Below, piece by piece: positions 1 to 12,502 of a stretch of 12,502 nt of DNA. This stretch comes from a virus. The position numbers were made by a program, and so were the translations under genes. How positions within the stretch are numbered: position 1 is the stretch's first letter; the number at the start of each line of letters is the position of its first letter. The stretch is taken from the UHGV virus genome UHGV-1789726, one strand, 5' to 3'. Below the pieces are notes generated by a model. That model was given only the letters and a program-made list of their open reading frames with translations, made no database searches and was not told the origin of the DNA.

Positions 1-19
1 TATGTCGTAGGTCTGACTC

Positions 20-47
20 ACCCATTTTTTGGGCGTTGGTGTATAAT
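20..47 (+). promoter_or_regulatory. Candidate sigma70 promoter: perfect TATAAT at 42-47 preceded by TG at 40-41, weak -35
   Basis: TATAAT hexamer read at 42-47 about 160 nt upstream of the first gene; no good TTGACA-like -35 at 17 bp spacing. Could be activator-dependent. Confidence 0.3.
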
Positions 48-81
48 CCAGCGCCTTTGTCAATCAATGGTGGCTCAGGCG

Positions 82-174
82 GGGGCTTCTTCGGAAGCGC
101 CGGTATCCTTCAGAGCCGGTTACGCCAACCCTGTCTGGGCTACCACCAGCGAAATTGGCGTTTCCGGTGGTAGC
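82..174 (+). promoter_or_regulatory. Structured 5' leader: UUCG-tetraloop hairpin (stem 85-89/94-98) and a 9-bp-stem hairpin (139-147/166-174)
   Basis: GCTTC-TTCG-GAAGC at 85-98; GCTACCACC (139-147) pairs with GGTGGTAGC (166-174) across an 18-nt loop. The 180-aa ORF called across this region has no RBS and low-complexity translation. Confidence 0.3.
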
Positions 175-203
175 GTAACCTGCTATCTGAAGGAGGCTGC
201 CAC

Positions 204-398
204 ATGCTGGCTACTACCCCTACCCAAAAAACGCAATTTATCTGGATTATCGCCGCAGTTCGCCGCGATTGCCCGACAATTACCGCCAAAATTCATCATA
301 TTGCTGCCGAGTCTGAACGCGATGCTCGCCGTTCTCTGGTGCGCGATCACATCTGCTTTTTTGCTGGTCGTATCCGCATGGAGGTGGCACATGATTAA
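204..398 (+). CDS. Small early protein, Icd/Kil-like (host cell-division inhibitor family of P4-type prophages), 64 aa
   Basis: AGGAGG at 191-196, 7 nt before ATG 204. Translation (FIWIIAAVRRD...RRSLVRDHICFFAGRIRMEVAHD) resembles Icd-like proteins from memory, unverified. Stop overlaps next start (ATGATTAA). Confidence 0.55.
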   Translation: MLATTPTQKTQFIWIIAAVRRDCPTITAKIHHIAAESERDARRSLVRDHICFFAGRIRMEVAHD

Positions 399-609
399 AA
401 CCTACGATGTGCATATGGATCCCCTCGAACGCACAAGCCAGATCATCACACTGACAGAAGTGATTAACGACATTCTGGTGAGCAACTCTCCCTCACGAGA
501 CGAAAAACTGAAGGCGTTACTCGCGATATTGGACCTCGCCGTTCGTGACGTTCATTTCCTGCTGGAAGGTGGACAAATGCCATGCAAAACGGGGGCAACC
601 AATGAATAA
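391..609 (+). CDS. Hypothetical small protein, 72 aa (internal start of the 67..609 track ORF)
   Basis: GGAGG at 381-385 before ATG 391; start overlaps the previous stop; stop overlaps next start. Confidence 0.5.
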   Translation: MIKTYDVHMDPLERTSQIITLTEVINDILVSNSPSRDEKLKALLAILDLAVRDVHFLLEGGQMPCKTGATNE

Positions 610-2221: not shown

Positions 2222-2585
2222 AAATGTAGAAATGGCGCTTAGCTCCGCAATCGGAGAGCAGGTGGCAAAGATTGCTGGTGCTGTGTGGATTCATAACCTT
2301 CATTCTACTGGTGAAGAGAAAATGGCAATTCAGACGCCAGAGGGACGCACCATTACTACATCTCTGAAGCCGTCAGATGTTTGTGATCTGATTTGCGCAT
2401 TCATGTACCCAGCAATGAGGACTGTCCACGGCGATAAGTGGAAACTTGCGACAACCGCTGAATTTGATATGTGGCTAAACAATGATGGCATGCTGACTGA
2501 TTACGGAATAACCAAGTGGCAGATGCTAGTTAGCCATATCGCAAACGCTATAGACCACGTGGGGTACGGTGATGCGAAACATTGA
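2214..2585 (+). CDS. Hypothetical protein, 123 aa
   Basis: GGGAGG before ATG 2214; start overlaps previous stop; stop overlaps primase start. Confidence 0.65.
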   Translation: MRENVEMALSSAIGEQVAKIAGAVWIHNLHSTGEEKMAIQTPEGRTITTSLKPSDVCDLICAFMYPAMRTVHGDKWKLATTAEFDMWLNNDGMLTDYGITKWQMLVSHIANAIDHVGYGDAKH

Positions 2586-5328
2586 TCTTATCCGTCAGGT
2601 TATCAGTGCGTCTGAAAACAACTGGCCTCATGTGCTGGGCTGCCTGAACATAAATGTCCCTGACTCTCCGCGCCGTCATGCTCCCTGCCCTGCATGTGGG
2701 GGCAAAGATCGATTCCGGTTCGATGACAACGGGCGCGGTAGCTTCATCTGTAATCAGTGCGGCGCTGGTGATGGGCTGGATTTAATTAAACGCGTAAATA
2801 ACTGCGACACAACAGAGGCGGCGCTTCTTGCCGCTGATGTTCTGGGTATTGATTACCGGACAACGGAAACACCAGAAGCCACCAGCCAGAAACGGGAACA
2901 ACTGGAAACCGAGCGCCAGCGACGCGAACAGGAGCGCCTGAAAAGGGCAGAGAAGGACGAACAACAAAGACGGGATACGTTTTCCCGTCAGTTTGATGAC
3001 ATGCGCAGAAAGGCTGTAAACGGCAAATCTGATTATCTGGTTGCGAAAGGGGTAGGTGATTTTACATTCCCCGTGTTGCCCGATGGATCTCTGTTGCTGG
3101 CGCTGGTGGATAAATCCGGCGCAGTAACAGCAGCACAGACTATTACCTCACATGGTGAAAAAAGACTCCTGACAGGTTCAGCAAAGCGAGGGGCATATCA
3201 CGCCATAAACGCACCAGAAACAACACAGAGCATCTTAATCGCAGAAGGGCTGGCAACGGCATTATCTGCCCATTTAATGCGTCCAGAGGCGCTGACAGTG
3301 GCGGCGATTGATGCCGGGAACCTGTTATATGTCGCCCAGGTACTGCGGGATAAATTTCCTTCAGCACAAATCATCATTGCTGCGGATAACGACCACAGCG
3401 AAGGAAGACAAAACACGGGGAGAATAGCAGCAGAAAAAGCAGCTTTATCTGTTTCTGGATGGGTGGCATTACCCCCGACAGATCACAAAGCAGACTGGAA
3501 TGATTACCACCAAAAACACGGCATTAAATGCGCCACAGAAGCGTTCAATAAGTCAATGTACCAACCACAGGGTAATGGCGTGAAACAGGAGCCACAGACC
3601 ATTGAGGGAAGCGATTTTAAGGTTATGGATACCGATCCACTGAAACCAAGAATAGAAAGCCGCGAGGATGGTATTTATTGGGTATCTCCGAGAGCTGACA
3701 GCCAGAGTGGAGAAATCATCAATAACGAAAGCTGGTTATGTTCTCCGTTAAGCGTTATCGGTACTGGCAGAGACGATAAAGACCAGTATCTCATTCTTCG
3801 CTGGCTGTCGTTTGGTTCTGAAACGCCGACAACCGCTGCCATTCCACTGGCTGATATTGGTGAACGTGAAGGATGGCGCACACTTAAAGCTGGTGGGGTA
3901 AATGTCACGACCAAAAGCAGCCTCAGAGCAATACTGGCAGACTGGCTACAACGCAGTGGCTCTCGTGAATTGTGGCGTGTTGCTCATGCCACTGGCTGGC
4001 AATGCGGAGCGTACATCATGCCTGATGGGGAAATCATCGGAACACCTGAAAATCCTGTGCTGTTCAGCGGGAGAAGCTCAGCCGCAGCCGGATATACCGT
4101 CTCAGGGAGCGCGAAAAGCTGGCGTGATAACGTGGCGCGTCTGGCCTTTGGTAACTATTCAATGATGACCGGGATCGGCGCAGCACTGGCAGCGCCATTG
4201 ATTGGGCTGGTGGGCGCTGACGGGTTCGGCATTCATTTCTATGAGCAGTCGAGCGCAGGTAAGACCACCACGGCAAACGTGGCGAGCAGCTTATACGGCA
4301 ACCCTGATTTACTGCGGCTGACGTGGTACGGAACCGCGCTGGGGCTGGCAAATGAGGCCGCCGCCCACAATGACGGACTAATGCCGCTTGATGAAGTTGG
4401 TCAGGGCGCTGATCCTGTCAGCGTTTCACAGTCTGCCTATGCGTTATTTAACGGTGTAGGGAAACTGCAAGGCGCTAAAGATGGTGGAAACCGGGATCTA
4501 AAACGCTGGCGTACAGTGGCAATCAGCACCGGAGAAATGGATTTAGAAACATTTATCGCTACTTCCGGGCGAAAAACCAAAGCCGGGCAACTGGTGCGAC
4601 TGCTGAATATTCCGTTGAGTAAAGCAGTACGCTTTCACGATTACCAGAACGGAAAACAGCACGCAGACGCACTGAAAGACGCTTACCAGCATCACCACGG
4701 CGCGTCCGGGCGTGAGTGGATTAAATGGCTGGCAGACCACCAGCAACAGGCTATTAAAACCGTTCGTGACTGCGAAAGCAGATGGAGAAGCCTGATCCCA
4801 TCCGATTATGGTGAGCAGGTTCACCGTGTAGCCGCGCGATTTGCCATTCTGGAGGCCGCATTGTTGTTAGGCGAGGTTGTAACAGGCTGGGATGCTCAGA
4901 CATGCCGTGATGCGATACAGCACAGCTATAACGCATGGTTGCGCGAGTTCGGCACAGGTAACAAAGAGCATCAGCAGATTATTGAACAAACGGAGGCATT
5001 TCTTAATGCCTATGGGCTTAGCCGTTTTGCACCATTTCCATACAGCCCGGCAGATTTGCCCATCAAAGATTTAGCCGGATACCGTCAGCGTGGAGAACAT
5101 GACGAAAGCCCAATGATTTTCTACACATTCCCGGCCACATTTGAAAAGGAGATCGCATGTGGTTTCAACGCAAAACAGTTTGCTGAAGTGTTGAAAAAAG
5201 CCGGGATGCTAACCCCACCAAACAGCGGTCGTGGATACCAAAGAAAATCACCACGTATTCAGGGACGACAAATAAACGTTTATGTACTCAATTACCAGCC
5301 AGGAGATTACAACTCATCTGAAGAATGA
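2572..5328 (+). CDS. Primase-helicase (P4 alpha / PICI Pri-Rep type): N-terminal zinc ribbon, TOPRIM, C-terminal P-loop domain; about 918 aa
   Basis: CPACGG...CNQCG zinc ribbon (nt ~2686-2766); TOPRIM signature with IAEG Glu (nt ~3244) and AADND (nt ~3385); SSAGKTT P-loop (nt ~4258). ATG 2572 preferred over the track's GTG 2569. Confidence 0.9.
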   Translation: MRNIDLIRQVISASENNWPHVLGCLNINVPDSPRRHAPCPACGGKDRFRFDDNGRGSFICNQCGAGDGLDLIKRVNNCDTTEAALLAADVLGIDYRTTETPEATSQKREQLETERQRREQERLKRAEKDEQQRRDTFSRQFDDMRRKAVNGKSDYLVAKGVGDFTFPVLPDGSLLLALVDKSGAVTAAQTITSHGEKRLLTGSAKRGAYHAINAPETTQSILIAEGLATALSAHLMRPEALTVAAIDAGNLLYVAQVLRDKFPSAQIIIAADNDHSEGRQNTGRIAAEKAALSVSGWVALPPTDHKADWNDYHQKHGIKCATEAFNKSMYQPQGNGVKQEPQTIEGSDFKVMDTDPLKPRIESREDGIYWVSPRADSQSGEIINNESWLCSPLSVIGTGRDDKDQYLILRWLSFGSETPTTAAIPLADIGEREGWRTLKAGGVNVTTKSSLRAILADWLQRSGSRELWRVAHATGWQCGAYIMPDGEIIGTPENPVLFSGRSSAAAGYTVSGSAKSWRDNVARLAFGNYSMMTGIGAALAAPLIGLVGADGFGIHFYEQSSAGKTTTANVASSLYGNPDLLRLTWYGTALGLANEAAAHNDGLMPLDEVGQGADPVSVSQSAYALFNGVGKLQGAKDGGNRDLKRWRTVAISTGEMDLETFIATSGRKTKAGQLVRLLNIPLSKAVRFHDYQNGKQHADALKDAYQHHHGASGREWIKWLADHQQQAIKTVRDCESRWRSLIPSDYGEQVHRVAARFAILEAALLLGEVVTGWDAQTCRDAIQHSYNAWLREFGTGNKEHQQIIEQTEAFLNAYGLSRFAPFPYSPADLPIKDLAGYRQRGEHDESPMIFYTFPATFEKEIACGFNAKQFAEVLKKAGMLTPPNSGRGYQRKSPRIQGRQINVYVLNYQPGDYNSSEE

Positions 5329-5353: not shown

Positions 5354-5464
5354 GTTGGTTCAGTTGGTTCAGTTGGTTCAATTTGTAAAGAGTATTGTTT
5401 TATAAGGATTTTATTCTTTTTATTGAACCAACACTGAACCAACAACACGGTATTTTGAACCAAC
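5354..5464. repeat. Iteron cluster / candidate origin: 3 tandem GTTGGTTCA, a 43-bp AT-rich spacer, then 3 inverted copies TGAACCAAC
   Basis: Direct copies at 5354-5362, 5363-5371, 5372-5380; AT-rich 5381-5423; inverted copies at 5424-5432, 5435-5443, 5456-5464 (11 bp and 21 bp centre-to-centre). Sits immediately 3' of the primase gene. Confidence 0.65.
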
Positions 5465-5784
5465 ACAATGTGACTGAATTGATGCGCACAACACCTGGCT
5501 GGCATCAGAGAGTGTTTTACGAGACTTTCGTAAAATCCTGTGTACAAGGGCGTGACGTTTTTGAAAGTGAGCACTACGAAATTTTCGTAGTTCAGAAAAC
5601 AGCCTCTGAGAAGTTGTTATGCCTGTTCAGCAAACCATCCGCATAGCTGATCGCGAATCAAATTACCAATGGAGCCAGAAGCAAGGGCAGAACTGAAAAG
5701 CGCCTGCCGTGAAGAGTAATGCGACACCATAAATATAGTTTTTAGAGTCCATAAAAAACCTGTCAAAACCTGACACACAGAACG

Positions 5785-5817
5785 ATGCCACCAGCTACTG
5801 AGCGGTGGCATTTTTTT
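5785..5817 (+). terminator. Rho-independent terminator
   Basis: 8-bp stem ATGCCACC (5785-5792) / GGTGGCAT (5804-5811) with an 11-nt loop, followed by a T7 run (5811-5817). Confidence 0.6.
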
Positions 5818-5912
5818 GTGCTATTTGTTTCATATTTTGCAATTACGATGATGAATATTGCGATTTGTGAAACTATAATAACTGTTGTTTTATACAGTTC
5901 TAAGGGGGCGTT

Positions 5913-6074
5913 ATGGCTATTTCAGTAAAGCCGGTATTGATAAGTGAGAAGCAAATGGAAGCGATAAAGAAAATTCAGGAAGAGCAGCGTAAAAAATCAG
6001 GAATTGGAGTAGCGCCAACTCTGCATGAAATTGCACGAGGGTTAATAGATAAGGCGCTGGCAGGCTGTATGTGA
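5913..6074 (+). CDS. Small ORF, 53 aa, absent from the ORF track; possible ribbon-helix-helix (Arc/MetJ-like) regulator
   Basis: AAGGGGG at 5902-5908, 4 nt before ATG 5913; stop TGA 6072-6074. Translation MAISVKPVLISEKQMEAIKKIQEEQRKKSGIGVAPTLHEIARGLIDKALAGCM has a strand-helix-helix layout. Fold assignment is inference. Confidence 0.45.
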   Translation: MAISVKPVLISEKQMEAIKKIQEEQRKKSGIGVAPTLHEIARGLIDKALAGCM

Positions 6075-6090
6075 AAATGGATGGCATCGC

Positions 6091-6552
6091 ATGGAACTAA
6101 AATTTATTGATAACCCTGTGCGATTACAGGCCTTTCTTAACGAGCCAGGCAATACCGAAAATATTGTTGAGCCGGGGCACACGTACTACATCAAGCCTGA
6201 TGCGGTATATCTCGGCATCTACGAAGGATTAGTGCTGGCTGGCGTTCATGAAGTGCGTAACTTCTGGCATAGCGTTGTTGAATGCCATGCGGTGTACGAC
6301 CCCGGATTCCGTGGTGAATATGCACTGCAAGGACATCGATTATTCTGCAAATGGCTTCTCGAAAACTCACCATTCCTTAACAGCATCACTATGGTTCCTG
6401 ACACCACGAAATACGGACGGGCAATTATCCGTTTGCTTGGCGCTACCCGTGTTGGTCACCTTGATGATGCTTATATCAGATGTGGTAAACCCGTCGGCGT
6501 AACGCTTTATCAGTTAACTCGGCAACAATATAAGGAATTCAGCGAATGTTAA
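6091..6552 (+). CDS. Hypothetical protein, 153 aa; first gene of the four-gene cassette
   Basis: Long ORF, non-repetitive sequence; stop overlaps next start (6546). Confidence 0.7.
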   Translation: MELKFIDNPVRLQAFLNEPGNTENIVEPGHTYYIKPDAVYLGIYEGLVLAGVHEVRNFWHSVVECHAVYDPGFRGEYALQGHRLFCKWLLENSPFLNSITMVPDTTKYGRAIIRLLGATRVGHLDDAYIRCGKPVGVTLYQLTRQQYKEFSEC

Positions 6553-7223
6553 TTACCCATATAGCTCATAAACATCTCAATCGTGCCGTATACGAAAAAG
6601 GCGGTGATGGTGGTGCCTCTAAAGCTCAGGCGAAGGCCCAGCAGCAGGCAATTGATTTGCAGCGCGAGCAGTGGAATACGGTGATGAATAATCTCAAGCC
6701 GTATGCAGAAGTCGGATTGCCTGCTTTACAACAACTACAAGGACTGATGACTCTGGAAGGGCAGAATAAAGCCGCGAATGATTTCTTTGGTTCTGGTTTA
6801 TATAAAACACAGGCAGATCAGGCCCGTTATCAGAACCTTGTCTCAGCAGAAGCTACCGGGGGGCTTGGCTCAACAGCTACCAGTAACCAGTTATCTTCCA
6901 TTGCGCCCATGCTTTATAACAATTGGCTTAGTGGGCAAATGCAAAATTATGGAAACCTGCTAAATGTCGGGATGAATGCGGCATCAGGGCAGGCAACGGC
7001 AGGGCAAAACTACGCCAATAATACCGGACAACTCTTGCAGGGGCTTGGCGCTATTCGTGCAGGTCAGGCGCAGCAGCCATCCAGTCTTGCGCGTGGTATT
7101 GGTGGGGCAGCATCAGGCGCTTTAGCGGGTGCGCAACTTGGTTCCGTTGTTCCTGGAATAGGAACTGCGGCCGGCGCTATTGGTGGTGGGCTTATTGGTC
7201 TTGTTGGGGGGCTTGGATTCTAA
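6546..7223 (+). CDS. Q/N/A/G-rich protein, 225 aa, with C-terminal glycine-zipper hydrophobic segment; internal-virion/ejection-protein-like
   Basis: AAGGAA 9 nt before ATG 6546. C-terminus GIGGAASGALAGAQLGSVVPGIGTAAGAIGGGLIGLVGGLGF (nt ~7083-7220). Stop overlaps next start (TAATG). Confidence 0.75.
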   Translation: MLITHIAHKHLNRAVYEKGGDGGASKAQAKAQQQAIDLQREQWNTVMNNLKPYAEVGLPALQQLQGLMTLEGQNKAANDFFGSGLYKTQADQARYQNLVSAEATGGLGSTATSNQLSSIAPMLYNNWLSGQMQNYGNLLNVGMNAASGQATAGQNYANNTGQLLQGLGAIRAGQAQQPSSLARGIGGAASGALAGAQLGSVVPGIGTAAGAIGGGLIGLVGGLGF

Positions 7224-8542
7224 TGGCGACATGGCAACTTGGCGGGCTGCCTAGCATGGCACCGCAAAATGATAATGCTCCTCGTTCTTCCGTTCCTCAG
7301 CCTGTGCAGTATCAGCAGCAGCCAAACGTAGGTTTAATGGCGCTACAGGGGCTAAGAGGCGTTGCTGAGATTAATCAGCAGGCGCAAATTTCCCAGCAGC
7401 TAAAAGAATATCAGGCACGGTTGGGTAGTGCGGTAGCTAATAATGATCGTGTTGGCGTGCAGAAGTTAATGGCCCAGTATCCCCAGTTTATGGCTGATTC
7501 TCAAAAACAGATGGGATTCATTGATGCTGAGCAAAATCGGCAGACCGCTGACGCTGCCATGAATCTGCGTCTTGCGTCACAAACTGGAGATCCACTGACC
7601 ATGCAGAAGGCCATTCAGCAGGCAAATCCAGTATTACAGCGATTTGGTCTTCCTGCTGAAGAGGTTTATCAGTCTTGGCAGAATGACCCACAGGAATTCA
7701 ACAGAATCACTGACCTCATCCACCTCCATGCTGATCCAAATAGTTACTTTAGTGTTCAAGAGAAGCAGCAAGGGCAGAGTATTGCACAGCAGAACGCAGA
7801 TACATCTGCATATAATGCTCAGGTTAATGCGGAGCAGGGTAATCGGCGGCTCGATATGGAGCAGTTCAAAGTCCTATCCGATAACCAACTACGCACGAGA
7901 GAAATGGTTCTGAAAGCACGACTTGGACGTGCTCAAAATGACATCGAGAGAGACAAGCTCAATGCTGAACTGAGCAAGGTACAGCAGGCGAAAGTGGAGA
8001 AGATGAACGATAAAATTAATACTGTTGCAGGTAATATCGACTCCTTGAACTCTGCGCTTGAAGTGGGTCATGAACTGGCGGGAATTGTAGGGAAACATCC
8101 TTCGGCCGTTACCCGTTCGCAGAACTATAACCCCCTGACGCTGGGGTTTGGATTCCTCCCTGATGTAGCAGAAGACACACGAAGCCTACGCGCCAAAGCT
8201 GATGAATACAACCTAAAGGTTATTCTGCCTAGCCTAAAAGGTACTTTTGGCTCTAACCCAACCGAAGGGGAAAGGGCTGCCCTTATGCAATCTCAAAATG
8301 GCATTAAGTCAGCAACCAGCAATGAGGCATTTTTGCGAGAGTTGAATAAAGCGCAGGACGTAATTATTCGAATGCAGAAACGACAGATTGCCGGGCTCGG
8401 TATTCCTGTAACCAAATCTAAGGACGAAGAAACTGATACCAAAATGCTGTTGCAGGATCCTTCACTGGTTAAGGATTATGTGACCGCACATGGCTATCTG
8501 CCGGAAAGTTACTATCAGGCAAAACTTAAGGGATGGCAATGA
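7223..8542 (+). CDS. Gln-rich, predicted helical/coiled-coil protein, 439 aa; internal-virion/ejection-protein-like
   Basis: Long ORF coupled at both ends; Q/A/N-rich composition. Confidence 0.8.
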   Translation: MATWQLGGLPSMAPQNDNAPRSSVPQPVQYQQQPNVGLMALQGLRGVAEINQQAQISQQLKEYQARLGSAVANNDRVGVQKLMAQYPQFMADSQKQMGFIDAEQNRQTADAAMNLRLASQTGDPLTMQKAIQQANPVLQRFGLPAEEVYQSWQNDPQEFNRITDLIHLHADPNSYFSVQEKQQGQSIAQQNADTSAYNAQVNAEQGNRRLDMEQFKVLSDNQLRTREMVLKARLGRAQNDIERDKLNAELSKVQQAKVEKMNDKINTVAGNIDSLNSALEVGHELAGIVGKHPSAVTRSQNYNPLTLGFGFLPDVAEDTRSLRAKADEYNLKVILPSLKGTFGSNPTEGERAALMQSQNGIKSATSNEAFLRELNKAQDVIIRMQKRQIAGLGIPVTKSKDEETDTKMLLQDPSLVKDYVTAHGYLPESYYQAKLKGWQ

Positions 8543-11259
8543 TGGCACAACTGACAGAAAAACAGAAAGCCTATTCCCGTCATCTCGATGAAAAATATGG
8601 TTTCCCATCAGGGACGATGGAAACATTAGTTGGCAATGAATCTAGTGGTAACGGAAGTGCCGAGTCACCGAAAGGAGCTAGAGGATTTGCTCAACTGATG
8701 CCCTCAGTAATGAGTGATGCTGGTTATCGTGGAACAGATCCGCGCTCACTGCCATTTGAAAAGCAAATGGATATCGCAGCAAACCATCTCAATAAAGGAA
8801 TGAAGCGATTTGGTGATATAGGTATGGCATTGGCTGGGTATAATTCTGGCTATGCTCGTATTAATGCCGTAAGAAACGGTAAATCTACACTGCCAGATGA
8901 AACGGCTAATTACGTAAGTAAATTTGCAGATGCCGGAATAATCCCTGATGACAGTGAAATCTTGCAGTTTGCACAAACCAGTCAACATCGCAATCTTCAG
9001 CAGCCTGACTACTCAGAGCTTGATAAAGAAATCTCTCAGGTGGGAGATATTTCTGCATGGGAAGCAAAACGTCAGCAATTTAAGAACATAGAAGCAGGAC
9101 TACCAACAGCCAGTTCATGGGAGCAGAAAAGAGCTCAGTTTCTCGCCGATGAAAATGCCGGGGAACCGCAGCAGCAAGTAGCCAAGTCTAACCTTAATCC
9201 TGAGATGGAATATCTTTCGCCAGGACTGAAAGCTGCGCCAGAGCAGATGGCCAGAGGGATTGCTAATATACCGTTTGATGTAATGGACGCAGGCGTGGGG
9301 GTAGTCAATGCGGCGCAATCAGCCGGAGCATGGGCAGCTCAGAAGCTTGGTGTGGGTGATGGCACATACACGCCCATATCACCTGTCTTTCGCCCAGTAG
9401 ACCAACCTACAGATCCATACGCGCAGGCTGGTGAGCAGCTAGCACCTTACCTTATTACAGGATTAGGTGCAGGAAAGGCAGCTACCGCAGCTTCTTCAGT
9501 TGCCAACGCTCCACGTGCTGAACGTGCGGCCACAAAGGTGGCTAGTATGTTGGCAGAAAACCTGCCAGGTACATTGGTGAACGCCCAAAAGAACGGGCAG
9601 ATCAGCCCAGAAGACCTAGCAAAAGAGACAGGTATTGGCCTAGCAGGATCGCTAGGAGCACGCGCTTTAATAAAGAGCGGACAGACAGCCAGTGACGTAA
9701 TGCGAGATGTATTGCGGAGTAATACAAATCAATCAGGCCATGTGTTAGGGGCAGCAAATACTCTGGAAACCGCCAATGATGTATCGAAAGCAGCGCGTTC
9801 TGCCGTAGGCCGAGAGCATATCGCATCGCAGGCATCAAACGTCAGAGATGATGTCGCTAAGGCGGCGAAAATCACTGGTATTAATATCAACACCCTGACG
9901 CCTGGAATGCGCTCAGGTAGTCGTGGAATTGCCCAAGCAGAAGGTGTTCTGGCATCAACTCCTGGGAATGTTCAGGATGCTCACCTTACGGCCTTCAATG
10001 AAATATCCTCAAAGTTGAATAAGCAGTTGTCTGATTTCGGTGCTGAGTCTGGAAGCGCATCAGAAAAAAGCGCAGCAATTAAAGAGCGCATCATCGCGAG
10101 CCTCAGTGATATGAAAACAGCAGAGAATATGGCATGGGCAGAACTGCGAAGCACGATGCCACGCGAAAGGATGAAAATGAGTAATGGGATGGCTGTCGTC
10201 CAAGCAGAAAAAGCAGCCAATGTTCCACTCAGCCCGGAGATGAAACAGTTTCAGGCTGCCAACAACCAAGGTGGCGGCATAACCTTCGACGGGATGAAGG
10301 CATGGCGTGCTAAGTTTGCTGATGCTGAACAAGCAAACACCCGGGCAGGTAAGGCCAATGCCGCCCGGATTGCCGGAGAAATGCGCAGAGCTATCACTGA
10401 TGACATGCGCATCATGGCTGAAAAAGGAAACTTCCTCACAGAATGGCAGAAAGCTAACGATCTCTCTAAAAGTTACATTATCGCCAAACAAAATGCCGAA
10501 TCTGTTTTTGGTCGAGATCTCGCATCAGACGCTATGGTAAGAAAAGGTGCCGATACGCTTAAGGCATCCGCAAACACTGGAACTGGAGCTTTTCACCGTC
10601 TTATCTCCGCGCTGCCGGAAGCAGAACGCCAACCAGCAATAGCATCTATTCTTCAGCATGCTGTGGCGCAGGGAGAGAAGGGAGGAATCGGTGAAGAGTC
10701 TGGTATCCAGTATTTTGCCAAGCTCATGACCCAGCAGAATGTAAACGCCATCAGTCGTCATGCGCCAGATCTCGGTAGAATGATGAAAGAGTTCGGTGTA
10801 CTCGCTAAAGCCAGCACCAGACCGCAGCGATACGTAGAGCGCACGGGAAGAACAACTGAGGCTCTCAAAACGCTCGATTCAGGCCTTCCAAAGATCGTCG
10901 GCGTGATTATGAACGGAGTTCAACAGTCAGGTGCGATCGCTGGAGGCTTTGGCGGTGGTGTAATTGGTTCGATTAGTGGTTTGGTTGCTGGTGGCGCGCT
11001 GAGAAATACTGTGGCTAAGATTGGGGCGACAAGAAGTGGTAGGTATGCGATAGAGAAAGCCGTTCAGGAAGCTACAAAAGCAGTGCGCGCAGGGGCATCA
11101 CCAGCAGCGATCGCCGCAGCAGAGAAACGATTTTCGGCCAATAAAATTGCCATGAAAGCAATTCGTGATGCCGTTGGGGCTGAAGAATTCGTGAAACTGA
11201 CAAGGGCCGGGATTGTAGCTACCCTCAGTGGCATGAAAGATGTTAGCGAATGGGAATAG
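8533..11259 (+). CDS. Large protein, 908 aa, with N-terminal family-1 lytic transglycosylase (SLT) motif set and a glycine-zipper segment near the C-terminus
   Basis: Motifs E-S (GNESSGN, nt ~8638), G-x-x-Q (GARGFAQLMP, nt ~8692), A-Y-N-x-G (ALAGYNSGYA, nt ~8839); GAIAGGFGGGVIGSISGLVAGGA at nt ~10900-11000. Start may be 8533, 8539 or 8542; AAGGGA at 8526-8531 favours 8539. Confidence 0.85.
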   Translation: MAMMAQLTEKQKAYSRHLDEKYGFPSGTMETLVGNESSGNGSAESPKGARGFAQLMPSVMSDAGYRGTDPRSLPFEKQMDIAANHLNKGMKRFGDIGMALAGYNSGYARINAVRNGKSTLPDETANYVSKFADAGIIPDDSEILQFAQTSQHRNLQQPDYSELDKEISQVGDISAWEAKRQQFKNIEAGLPTASSWEQKRAQFLADENAGEPQQQVAKSNLNPEMEYLSPGLKAAPEQMARGIANIPFDVMDAGVGVVNAAQSAGAWAAQKLGVGDGTYTPISPVFRPVDQPTDPYAQAGEQLAPYLITGLGAGKAATAASSVANAPRAERAATKVASMLAENLPGTLVNAQKNGQISPEDLAKETGIGLAGSLGARALIKSGQTASDVMRDVLRSNTNQSGHVLGAANTLETANDVSKAARSAVGREHIASQASNVRDDVAKAAKITGININTLTPGMRSGSRGIAQAEGVLASTPGNVQDAHLTAFNEISSKLNKQLSDFGAESGSASEKSAAIKERIIASLSDMKTAENMAWAELRSTMPRERMKMSNGMAVVQAEKAANVPLSPEMKQFQAANNQGGGITFDGMKAWRAKFADAEQANTRAGKANAARIAGEMRRAITDDMRIMAEKGNFLTEWQKANDLSKSYIIAKQNAESVFGRDLASDAMVRKGADTLKASANTGTGAFHRLISALPEAERQPAIASILQHAVAQGEKGGIGEESGIQYFAKLMTQQNVNAISRHAPDLGRMMKEFGVLAKASTRPQRYVERTGRTTEALKTLDSGLPKIVGVIMNGVQQSGAIAGGFGGGVIGSISGLVAGGALRNTVAKIGATRSGRYAIEKAVQEATKAVRAGASPAAIAAAEKRFSANKIAMKAIRDAVGAEEFVKLTRAGIVATLSGMKDVSEWE

Positions 11260-12137: not shown

Positions 12138-12236
12138 GCCCCTATTATTCATGAATCGCTTTTTCTAGAAGGTATGCGACAAACGTTAAGTGACATTGCC
12201 TACACATTCGGGGCGGGATTTCAAATCCGCTCCCAG

Positions 12237-12408
12237 TTGATGGGGGGCGTTACAGTACGCGCATATCCGCTTTATGTGAAACAGGAAGATTTTTCTGATA
12301 TCACTGCCACAGCAAAACACCAATTTCGTGACCAGTACGCGCGCGAGGGGTATCAGTTGCAAAAAATTTTGCAACTACGTCCGACCAGTACGCACACGAT
12401 GGCGGGGG
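12237..12408. repeat. Repeat-rich noncoding region: three copies of CAGTACGC, two longer direct repeats flanking a 20-bp palindrome
   Basis: CAGTACGC at 12253-12260, 12333-12340, 12386-12393; GACCAGTACGC at 12330-12340 and 12383-12393; palindrome GTTGCAAAA-AA-TTTTGCAAC at 12356-12375; GATGG(G/C)GGGG at 12237-12247 and 12398-12408. Confidence 0.45.
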
Positions 12409-12502
12409 ATACCATAAAACTGTTCTCTACATGAGACAGAGTGGTGGTGAACCGCCCCGGGAATCCTGGAGACTAAACTTCCTGAGAAAGAGGTAAACAG
12501 GA

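Follow-up and report, generated by a model that had tools for sequence, protein, structure and literature searches.

The 12,502-nt virus genome UHGV-1789726 (the whole stretch of DNA that was analysed, hereafter the window) represents, with near certainty from its sequence identity, the central part of a phage-inducible chromosomal island (PICI) of the EcCIMP1 family, a satellite with P22-like podoviruses as helpers. Where other satellites have genes that resize the capsid or redirect the terminase after the primase, this one has an ejectosome module of four genes, whose homology to the gp14/gp7/gp20/gp16 set of P22 is near certain. Known satellites hijack their helpers by resizing capsids, by redirecting the terminase or with heads of their own; to our knowledge none brings its own DNA-ejection machinery. 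We put at roughly even the chances that DNA delivery by the satellite relies on matched conduit proteins of its own, loaded into capsids of the helper.

An earlier note on this DNA, made from the letters alone, had described four co-oriented, coupled genes for proteins of 153, 225, 439 and 908 amino acids, resembling the internal or ejection cassettes of T7 (gp13–16) and P22 (gp14/7/20/16) and with an N-terminal SLT motif set in the largest product. The coordinates proved exact, with all four genes on the + strand (Table 1). Successive open reading frames (ORFs) overlap at their start and stop codons (ATGTTAA, TAATG and ATGATG/TGA) behind ribosome-binding sites AAGGA or AAGGG, indicating translational coupling. 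The likeness to P22 in order, size and composition turned out to be true homology in profile searches, each product matching a P22-type family. DUF2824, the family of the first product, occupies the gene-14 position in P22-like phages (Kapi1_055 in phage Kapi1, and the prophages at loci L012–L014). In the 439-amino-acid protein, labelled 'phage DNA ejection protein' by RefSeq, the Inj_translocase match is confined to N-terminal residues 34–196. The 908-amino-acid protein combines an SLT domain (residues 17–119) with a phrog_770 body (residues ~189–864), and the SLT catalytic E-S, QLMPS and AGYNxG motifs are intact in it and invariant among homologues and in all satellite copies.

By tblastn, the body of this protein was 48–52% identical to gene 16 of HK620, CUS-3 and epsilon34 (51% for CUS-3 and 48% for HK620 over residues 177–901), and the whole protein including the SLT domain was 47% identical, across 97% of its length, to coliphages Dewey and Huey. 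A Salmonella gp16 homologue, 84% identical, carries PF26808. The figure of only 26% identity given for CUS-3 versus HK620 gp16 (PMC10883804) is at odds with the ~50% identity of the window body to each, and nothing here is built on it. The resemblance to T7 stood only for the SLT domain (phrog_342 matched residues 9–217 of 908): no homology to T7 gp14, gp15 or gp16 was found beyond it, and the other three cassette proteins matched P22 families only. The T7 gp14–gp16 core is analogous in function: it too is ejected to form a conduit across the envelope, and an SLT domain opens its largest protein.

The element itself has been described. EcCIMP1 is a 19,963-bp PICI at the same tRNA-Thr/proA-yagU site in Escherichia coli MP1 (Pick, Stadel & Raivio, ISME J 2025; PMC11773190), and the window is 98.8% identical to it at the nucleotide level across 12.3 kb, with proteins 98–99.8% identical and in unchanged gene order. 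Read with 18-kb flanks, the island spans 19–20 kb between tRNA-Thr and the pao/yagU genes, bounded by attachment (att) repeats TCCTATTATC that lie 19,963 bp apart in MP1, exactly as published, and 19,216 bp apart in a second E. coli copy (L001). Excision and circularisation of EcCIMP1 occur only with the P22-like prophage Kapi1 present or induced and need the island's own int and alpA (PMC11773190). Given the sequence identity and the att core bounding 19,963 bp, satellite status is already established experimentally for this element, which bears out one of three candidates raised in the earlier note (a satellite, a decoy or exclusion system, a prophage remnant). The window was present at ~99% identity in 70 complete E. 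coli genomes; as a whole it was not found in phage records by a phage-database DNA search, in which only ~350–400 bp of the gp14 gene matched, at ~90%. The window copy differs from the MP1 island by an IS3-family insertion sequence at 12448 and, as L001 also does, in its accessory end.

From tRNA-Thr the island runs through an integrase, an AlpA-type helix-turn-helix (HTH) regulator, an AntA/B anti-repressor, a DUF4222 protein, an Ash-family protein, small ORFs and the primase, followed by the cassette, two ORFs and a variable accessory end (Abi, PerC). The HTH regulator follows int in L001 and L002, and Pfam Phage_AlpA matched its equivalents in L010, L015 and L018. Inspection of the flanks, suggested by the earlier note, thus revealed the integrase and the att repeats and no ordinary prophage. 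Annotation of L001 and the MP1 island showed no capsid, portal, terminase, tail or lysis gene across the whole island, flanks included, so that the absence of such virion genes remarked on in the window holds for the complete 19.2–20.0 kb between the att repeats. The homologues of gp7, gp20 and gp16 are virion-internal proteins in P22-like phages, and the description of PICIs as elements with no structural genes therefore applies here in part. No TerS, Rpp or Cpm-like packaging or capsid-redirection family was found among the window proteins with Pfam, PHROGs and NCBIfam; it was for want of such a module that EcCIMP1 was classed as 'Type C #var01' (PMC11773190).

Much of this backbone is shared with known satellites. 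The classical PICIs EcCICFT073 and EcCIEDL933 have an integrase, AlpA, a primase with origin and PerC, a size of 10–20 kb and helper-dependent induction, as does the island, and P4 has in common with it an Ash-family protein and an alpha-type primase. Classical PICIs and P4 manipulate assembly or packaging (Rpp, TerS, Sid/Psu), whereas the EcCIMP1 family, with a podovirus helper, carries DNA-delivery proteins instead; neither the window proteins nor the genes annotated by RefSeq across the island gave any P4 family of the Sid, Psu or Delta kind. P22-like cassettes (14-7-20-16 of P22, Kapi1_055–058, and those of HK620, CUS-3 and Sf6) have the same four families, order and coupled translation, and SLT-gp16 fusions are also found in the true phages Dewey and Huey and in a Serratia prophage (L012). 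What differs is the position: in P22-like phages (Kapi1, L012–L014) the cassette belongs to the virion-assembly operon, after gp4, gp10 and the gp26 needle, whereas in the island it follows the primase, the origin and a 53-amino-acid ORF and has no other virion gene alongside. A family satellite was also deposited for strain NRZ14408 as a separate 19,226-bp record, 'phage_14408_2' (L007, NZ_LT599831.1, 1–19226), which starts and ends inside the gp16-type gene and is hence circularly permuted; a chromosomal match is listed for the same strain (H131, NZ_CP158426.1). The permutation may stem from excised, circular island DNA present in the culture that was sequenced, or be an assembly artefact.

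Kapi1 has a canonical cassette of its own (Kapi1_055–058) after the tail-needle gene. Protein identity between the island and Kapi1 falls from 84% for gp14 and 58% for gp7 to 26% for gp20 (alignable over residues 1–298 only) and 24% for gp16, and this steep drop indicates that the island carries an ejection-protein (E-protein) type unlike that of its helper. No gp20 more than ~28% identical to the island gp20 over its full length was found among sequenced phages, and the cassette is not a recent capture from any of them. Clear DNA similarity to Kapi1 was restricted to gp14 and the 5' part of gp7 (window 6091–6680 versus Kapi1 27948–28536; 81% over 596 bp), a stretch common to all E. coli satellite alleles that could act as a homology arm for swapping the gp20/gp16 alleles downstream of it. 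A comparison of EcCIMP1 with the terS region of Kapi1 for a shared pac-like sequence turned up no more than two 14-mers, about what chance would give. A 23.5-kb record, 'Salmonella phage S.Kent 1-2-1', was considered as a possible packaged satellite, but it has terminase, portal and coat genes and proved to be an ordinary P22-like phage assembled as an incomplete contig.

The cassette is under purifying selection. Between the E. coli and Leclercia copies the ratio of nonsynonymous to synonymous substitution rates (dN/dS) was 0.073 for gp14, 0.067 for gp7, 0.065 for gp20 and 0.083 for gp16, with dS at least 1 for all four; the primases of the same satellites are only 68.5% identical. A search of 5.8 billion proteins identified full-length homologues of the island-type gp20, at 36–89% identity, in Citrobacter, Kluyvera, Klebsiella, Salmonella, Pluralibacter, Pectobacterium, Serratia and Providencia. 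Genomic contexts were read for a sample of these loci. A scan of genome contigs from one genome per species, made with a single protein as query and so reaching close relatives only, returned two loci. Homologues at 49–89% identity lay in satellites (Leclercia L004, Salmonella L008/L009, Pectobacterium L010, metagenome L011, Serratia L016, and L017–L020) with AlpA, AntA or Bro-N, DUF4222, Ash and primase and no structural genes. Those at 32–47% identity lay in complete P22-like prophages (L012–L014) carrying terminase, portal, scaffold, coat, gp4, gp10, needle, arc/mnt and tailspike genes. The recurrence of the cassette beside satellite-type primases, proposed in the earlier note as a check, was thus found in Leclercia, Salmonella, Pectobacterium, Serratia and metagenome contigs. 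Within E. coli, the cassette also keeps its position in islands that differ in integrase, in insertion site (yicC/dinD) and in replicase (DUF5906) (L006, L015).

Differences in gene content within the family are informative. Gp14 is missing in L019 and L020, and L018 (9822–14178), which has a satellite backbone of int, DUF6387, AlpA, AntA, Ash and DUF927, lacks both gp14 and gp7 and has a minimal module made up of gp20, SLT-gp16 and an ORF of the 53-amino-acid type. The invariant core of the cassette consists of gp20 and gp16, which fits the experimental need for gp16 and gp20 to be matched while gp7 is interchangeable (PMC10883804). Degenerate copies were also seen, one with a split gp16 and no primase (L017) and one in which gp16 is disrupted by IS66 (L006). 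Its recurrence across backbones and across several Enterobacterales genera is evidence that the cassette is a trait of satellites and not an accident.

Among complete E. coli genomes, a satellite-type gp20 start was found in 259 of 5426 (~5%). The gp20 and gp16 of the window (allele A) occur in 72 of them, 70 with the whole window context, whereas in ~187 further genomes, which carry other alleles, the match (~100%) ends after the first 161 nt of gp20. There are at least three E. coli alleles, with a mosaic junction in allele A gp20 after about nt 161: allele B consists of a 473-amino-acid gp20 and an 'injection protein' (L005–L007) and allele C of a 432-amino-acid gp20 and a 705-amino-acid protein (L015). 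The gp20 proteins of the three alleles are identical in the first 40-residue window and 50% identical in residues 41–80, and those of B and C remain identical on to about residue 160. No close phage counterpart was found for alleles B and C, the best being 53% identical to APSE for B and 63% to Sf101 for C. Over residues ~200–360, however, allele C gp20 is 95–100% identical to that of Kapi1, within a DNA patch of 1,261 bp at 88.5% nucleotide identity (L015 10544–11804 versus Kapi1, L003, 29674–30916) that spans the C-terminal half of gp20 and runs on into gp16 for about its first 150 residues, taking in the gp20/gp16 junction as one unit. This patch indicates that satellites and P22-like phages exchange ejectosome segments. 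The variable part of gp20/gp16 coincides with the region of the P22 mutations that escape SieA exclusion, which map to gp20 residues 338–350 and to gp16 (PMC10883804).

These observations suggest a route by which the satellite might supply its own delivery conduit. Once a P22-like helper such as Kapi1 has turned to lytic growth, the island excises and replicates from its iteron origin, as Pick et al. showed for EcCIMP1 (PMC11773190), and it would express the cassette on induction. The cassette products would then enter procapsids built by the helper by a scaffold-dependent route that is mediated by their N-termini and tolerant of very divergent E-protein sets, as the P22 hybrid phages suggest: gp7 and gp20 bind procapsids via their N-terminal parts through scaffold (PMC8402733), and P22 virions take up whole E-protein sets of Sf6, L, CUS-3 and HK620, which work there (PMC10883804). 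The ratio of island to Kapi1 genome size is 0.49–0.51, so about two island copies (2 x 20 kb) would fill one headful of the ~39.4-kb helper genome and no gene for capsid resizing would be needed. In a new cell the satellite gp7, gp20 and gp16 would be ejected, the SLT domain would cut peptidoglycan, and gp20 together with gp16 would build a trans-envelope conduit for the satellite DNA.

The benefit, more speculatively, could be delivery independent of the E-protein type of the helper, with escape in lysogens from SieA-type exclusion acting on gp20/gp16. Such escape would be useful as lysogens are the cells in which the satellite finds a helper, and both the HK620 set and point mutations in gp16/gp20 escape SieA exclusion (PMC10883804). 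A more far-reaching version, which we advance tentatively and hold to be possible though short of probable, is that among known satellites the islands of the EcCIMP1 family would be the first to pirate entry instead of assembly or packaging. They would exchange the conduit of the helper podovirus for their own matched gp20/gp16 with its SLT domain, and a pool of exchangeable alleles would give entry into cells, especially lysogens, that exclude the E-protein type of the helper, after which a lipoprotein of predicted TraT-type fold would close the door.

That lipoprotein, of 232 amino acids, is encoded directly 3' of gp16 and is 100% identical in MP1; an ORF of the same size follows gp16 in Salmonella and metagenome satellites, and distant homologues carry DUF4136. 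A confident AlphaFold2 (AF2) model predicts a fold of the TraT/PelC/DUF4136/CsgG class with a long beta-hairpin. The gene's position parallels that of sieA, which follows gene 16 in P22. EcCIMP1 raises the resistance of Kapi1 lysogens to superinfection by Kapi1, the responsible gene not being named (PMC11773190), and the lipoprotein is a reasonable candidate for the exclusion factor behind this phenotype.

Expression of the cassette on induction, entry of its products into particles and a need for them in transfer are inferred, and several points weigh against conduit supply by the satellite. Co-assembly of the helper and satellite sets could give mixed gp16/gp20 harmful to both. The earlier note had credited the cassette with its own promoter, but a scan for canonical sigma-70 promoters called none upstream of it on the + strand. 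No packaging determinant (terS, Rpp or pac) was identified in the EcCIMP1-type island, which leaves the route into particles incompletely understood. Kapi1 transduces EcCIMP1 inefficiently (~4.8e3 particles per ml), which says nothing positive for the cassette, and Kapi1 titres from induced lysogens are the same with and without EcCIMP1 (PMC11773190). As for escape from exclusion, sieA homologues have been reported only in Salmonella phages (PMC10883804).

The same proteins might instead interfere with the helper. If satellite E-proteins competed for the scaffold-dependent sites in procapsids, helper virions with mismatched gp16/gp20 would inject poorly and spread less, an outcome that other satellites reach by other means; when gp16 or gp20 is exchanged singly between P22 and Sf6, the particles are indeed non-infectious though the foreign protein is incorporated (PMC10883804), and the island gp20 and gp16 differ from those of Kapi1 to the extent given above. 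Such an effect is hard to reconcile with the equal Kapi1 titres, the same poisoning would strike particles carrying the satellite, and mere competition needs neither a conserved gp14 and gp7 nor an SLT domain with an intact active site, so that we consider interference unlikely. Nor do we favour the decoy or exclusion system raised in the earlier note, in which one or more cassette proteins in the envelope of the resident cell would disturb conduit assembly by incoming P22-like phages and so explain the immunity. The added superinfection resistance of Kapi1 lysogens with EcCIMP1 (PMC11773190) and the association of gp16-type proteins with membranes (PMC10883804) would fit it. It would leave unexplained the gp14 assembly factor, the catalytic SLT domain and purifying selection over full length, and the cassette lies behind a terminator in an operon with no recognisable constitutive promoter. 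None of 10 window proteins matched PADLOC at E <= 0.01, and with the adjacent TraT/PelC-fold lipoprotein as the better exclusion candidate we regard this role for the cassette as rather improbable.

A part in capsid morphogenesis or packaging, hinted at by Pick et al., would have the proteins occupy capsid volume or adjust the headful, for example. The cassette does sit where PICIs usually carry packaging genes (PMC11773190), and the island is about half the size of the helper genome. Its homology, though, is to ejection proteins, none with a known role in pac recognition or capsid size; any volume effect would be small against a 20-kb difference, and the invariant pairing of gp20 with gp16 would go unexplained, making this role quite improbable. 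Least credible is an inert leftover with no present function, a decayed P22-like prophage fragment fused to a PICI backbone, which corresponds to the prophage remnant of the earlier note. The cassette genes do derive from P22-like phages and decayed copies exist (L017, L006), yet dN/dS is ~0.07 at saturating dS, the ORFs are intact and coupled in more than 70 E. coli genomes, the cassette is kept in satellites of several genera with different integrases, sites and replicases, and no neighbouring phage gene (needle, tailspike, arc/mnt) remains; we regard this reading as very improbable.

The element and its satellite nature are already published. Three things were found in no paper in the incomplete literature searched: that the module amounts to a full ejectosome set of the P22 type; that it is conserved, under selection and open to mosaic exchange throughout a family of satellites that ~5% of complete E. 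coli genomes carry; and the idea of a satellite pirating the entry step. Pick et al. never use the word 'ejection' and did not identify the genes as the gp14/7/20/16 ejectosome set (PMC11773190). A paper on Tai, tail-assembly interference by PICIs against P22 and HK620, was considered as a precedent and set aside, as it concerns the needle protein and not the ejection proteins. If the island proteins are loaded into helper particles, entry would be a new target of satellite piracy, and the family would be a natural system showing podovirus E-protein sets as exchangeable cargo. Loading would also explain a class of PICIs that current satellite classifiers mark as 'incomplete' and that extends beyond E. 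coli to several further genera of Enterobacterales. The finding gives a concrete starting point for two EcCIMP1 phenotypes, poor transfer by Kapi1 and added superinfection immunity, and is relevant to the question of why, the tailspike aside, no virion proteins vary more than gp20 and gp16.

Table 1. Features of the window (UHGV-1789726; positions from its first nucleotide)
Feature	Position	Strand	Evidence
Ash-family protein gene, 3' part (5' end cut by window start)	1–609	+	Pfam Phage_ASH 2.8e-20; RefSeq 1068-bp 'ash family protein' in L001
P4-alpha-type primase/replicase, 919 aa (Zn-ribbon + Toprim + DUF927)	2569–5328	+	DUF927 3.5e-47; Zn_Ribbon_Prim 2.8e-15; Toprim_3 7.4e-15; phrog_1139 DNA primase 2.4e-178
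Origin-like iteron block: GTTGGTTCA x3 direct, AT-rich spacer, TGAACCAAC x3 inverted	5354–5466		Repeat search
Terminator-like hairpin with T-run, between replication module and cassette operon	5776–5820	+	
Conserved 53-aa ORF heading the cassette	5913–6074	+	Identical protein accession in L001, L002, L006, L007
gp14 homologue (DUF2824; 'head morphogenesis'), 153 aa	6091–6552	+	PF11039 1.5e-61; phrog_651 1e-66
gp7 ejection-protein homologue, 225 aa	6546–7223	+	PF25688 (P22_gp7) 6.6e-73; phrog_598 3.2e-70
gp20 ejection-protein homologue, satellite allele A, 439 aa	7223–8542	+	PF16928 (Inj_translocase) 3.7e-22; phrog_917, phrog_2534
SLT + gp16-type 'DNA transfer' protein fusion, 908 aa	8533–11259	+	PF01464 1.1e-12; phrog_770 1.8e-120
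Outer-membrane-type lipoprotein, 232 aa	11410–12108	+	Lipoprotein signal, lipobox LLAGC, residue +2 = V
86-aa ORF, start of the island's variable accessory region	12174–12434	+	Hypothetical in L001; no family match
IS3-family (IS629-like) insertion sequence end	12448–12502		98–100% match to IS629 ends in Stx phage records

Upstream of the cassette, the primase with its Zn-ribbon, Toprim and DUF927 domains and the GTTGGTTCA iterons were both confirmed, in line with the earlier description of a cassette placed after a primase and an iteron origin; the iteron block lies directly 3' of the primase gene, a placement that would be as in other PICIs. The 53-amino-acid ORF precedes the cassette in most sampled satellites, including L018 with gp20 and gp16 only, and is 51–100% identical in Salmonella, Pectobacterium and metagenome satellites; no small ORF was called ahead of the cassette in L009, L016 and L017. 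Its model predicts an extended N-terminus and two helices, a topology like that of ribbon-helix-helix (RHH) proteins. The part of small regulator that the earlier note gave to the cassette is putative for this ORF. An RHH regulator, suspected from the sequence pattern, found no support: the ORF had no match in Pfam, NCBIfam or PDB sequences and profiles, nor in Foldseek with a single-sequence model.

Downstream, the IS3-family end interrupts the accessory region of the island, and homology with un-interrupted islands stops at 12450. Un-interrupted relatives go on with Abi or other variable genes and then PerC, and Abi_2 genes lie further downstream in some relatives, outside the cassette. In other genera a variable insert separates the primase from the cassette (L004 6039–8426; L008 6531–8450; L011 4875–6794; L019 5854–8896), including SSB, ProQ-like and phrog_6204 proteins and, in L019, a reverse-strand block containing HipA_2. 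This insert appears to be a second accessory or defence hotspot of the family.

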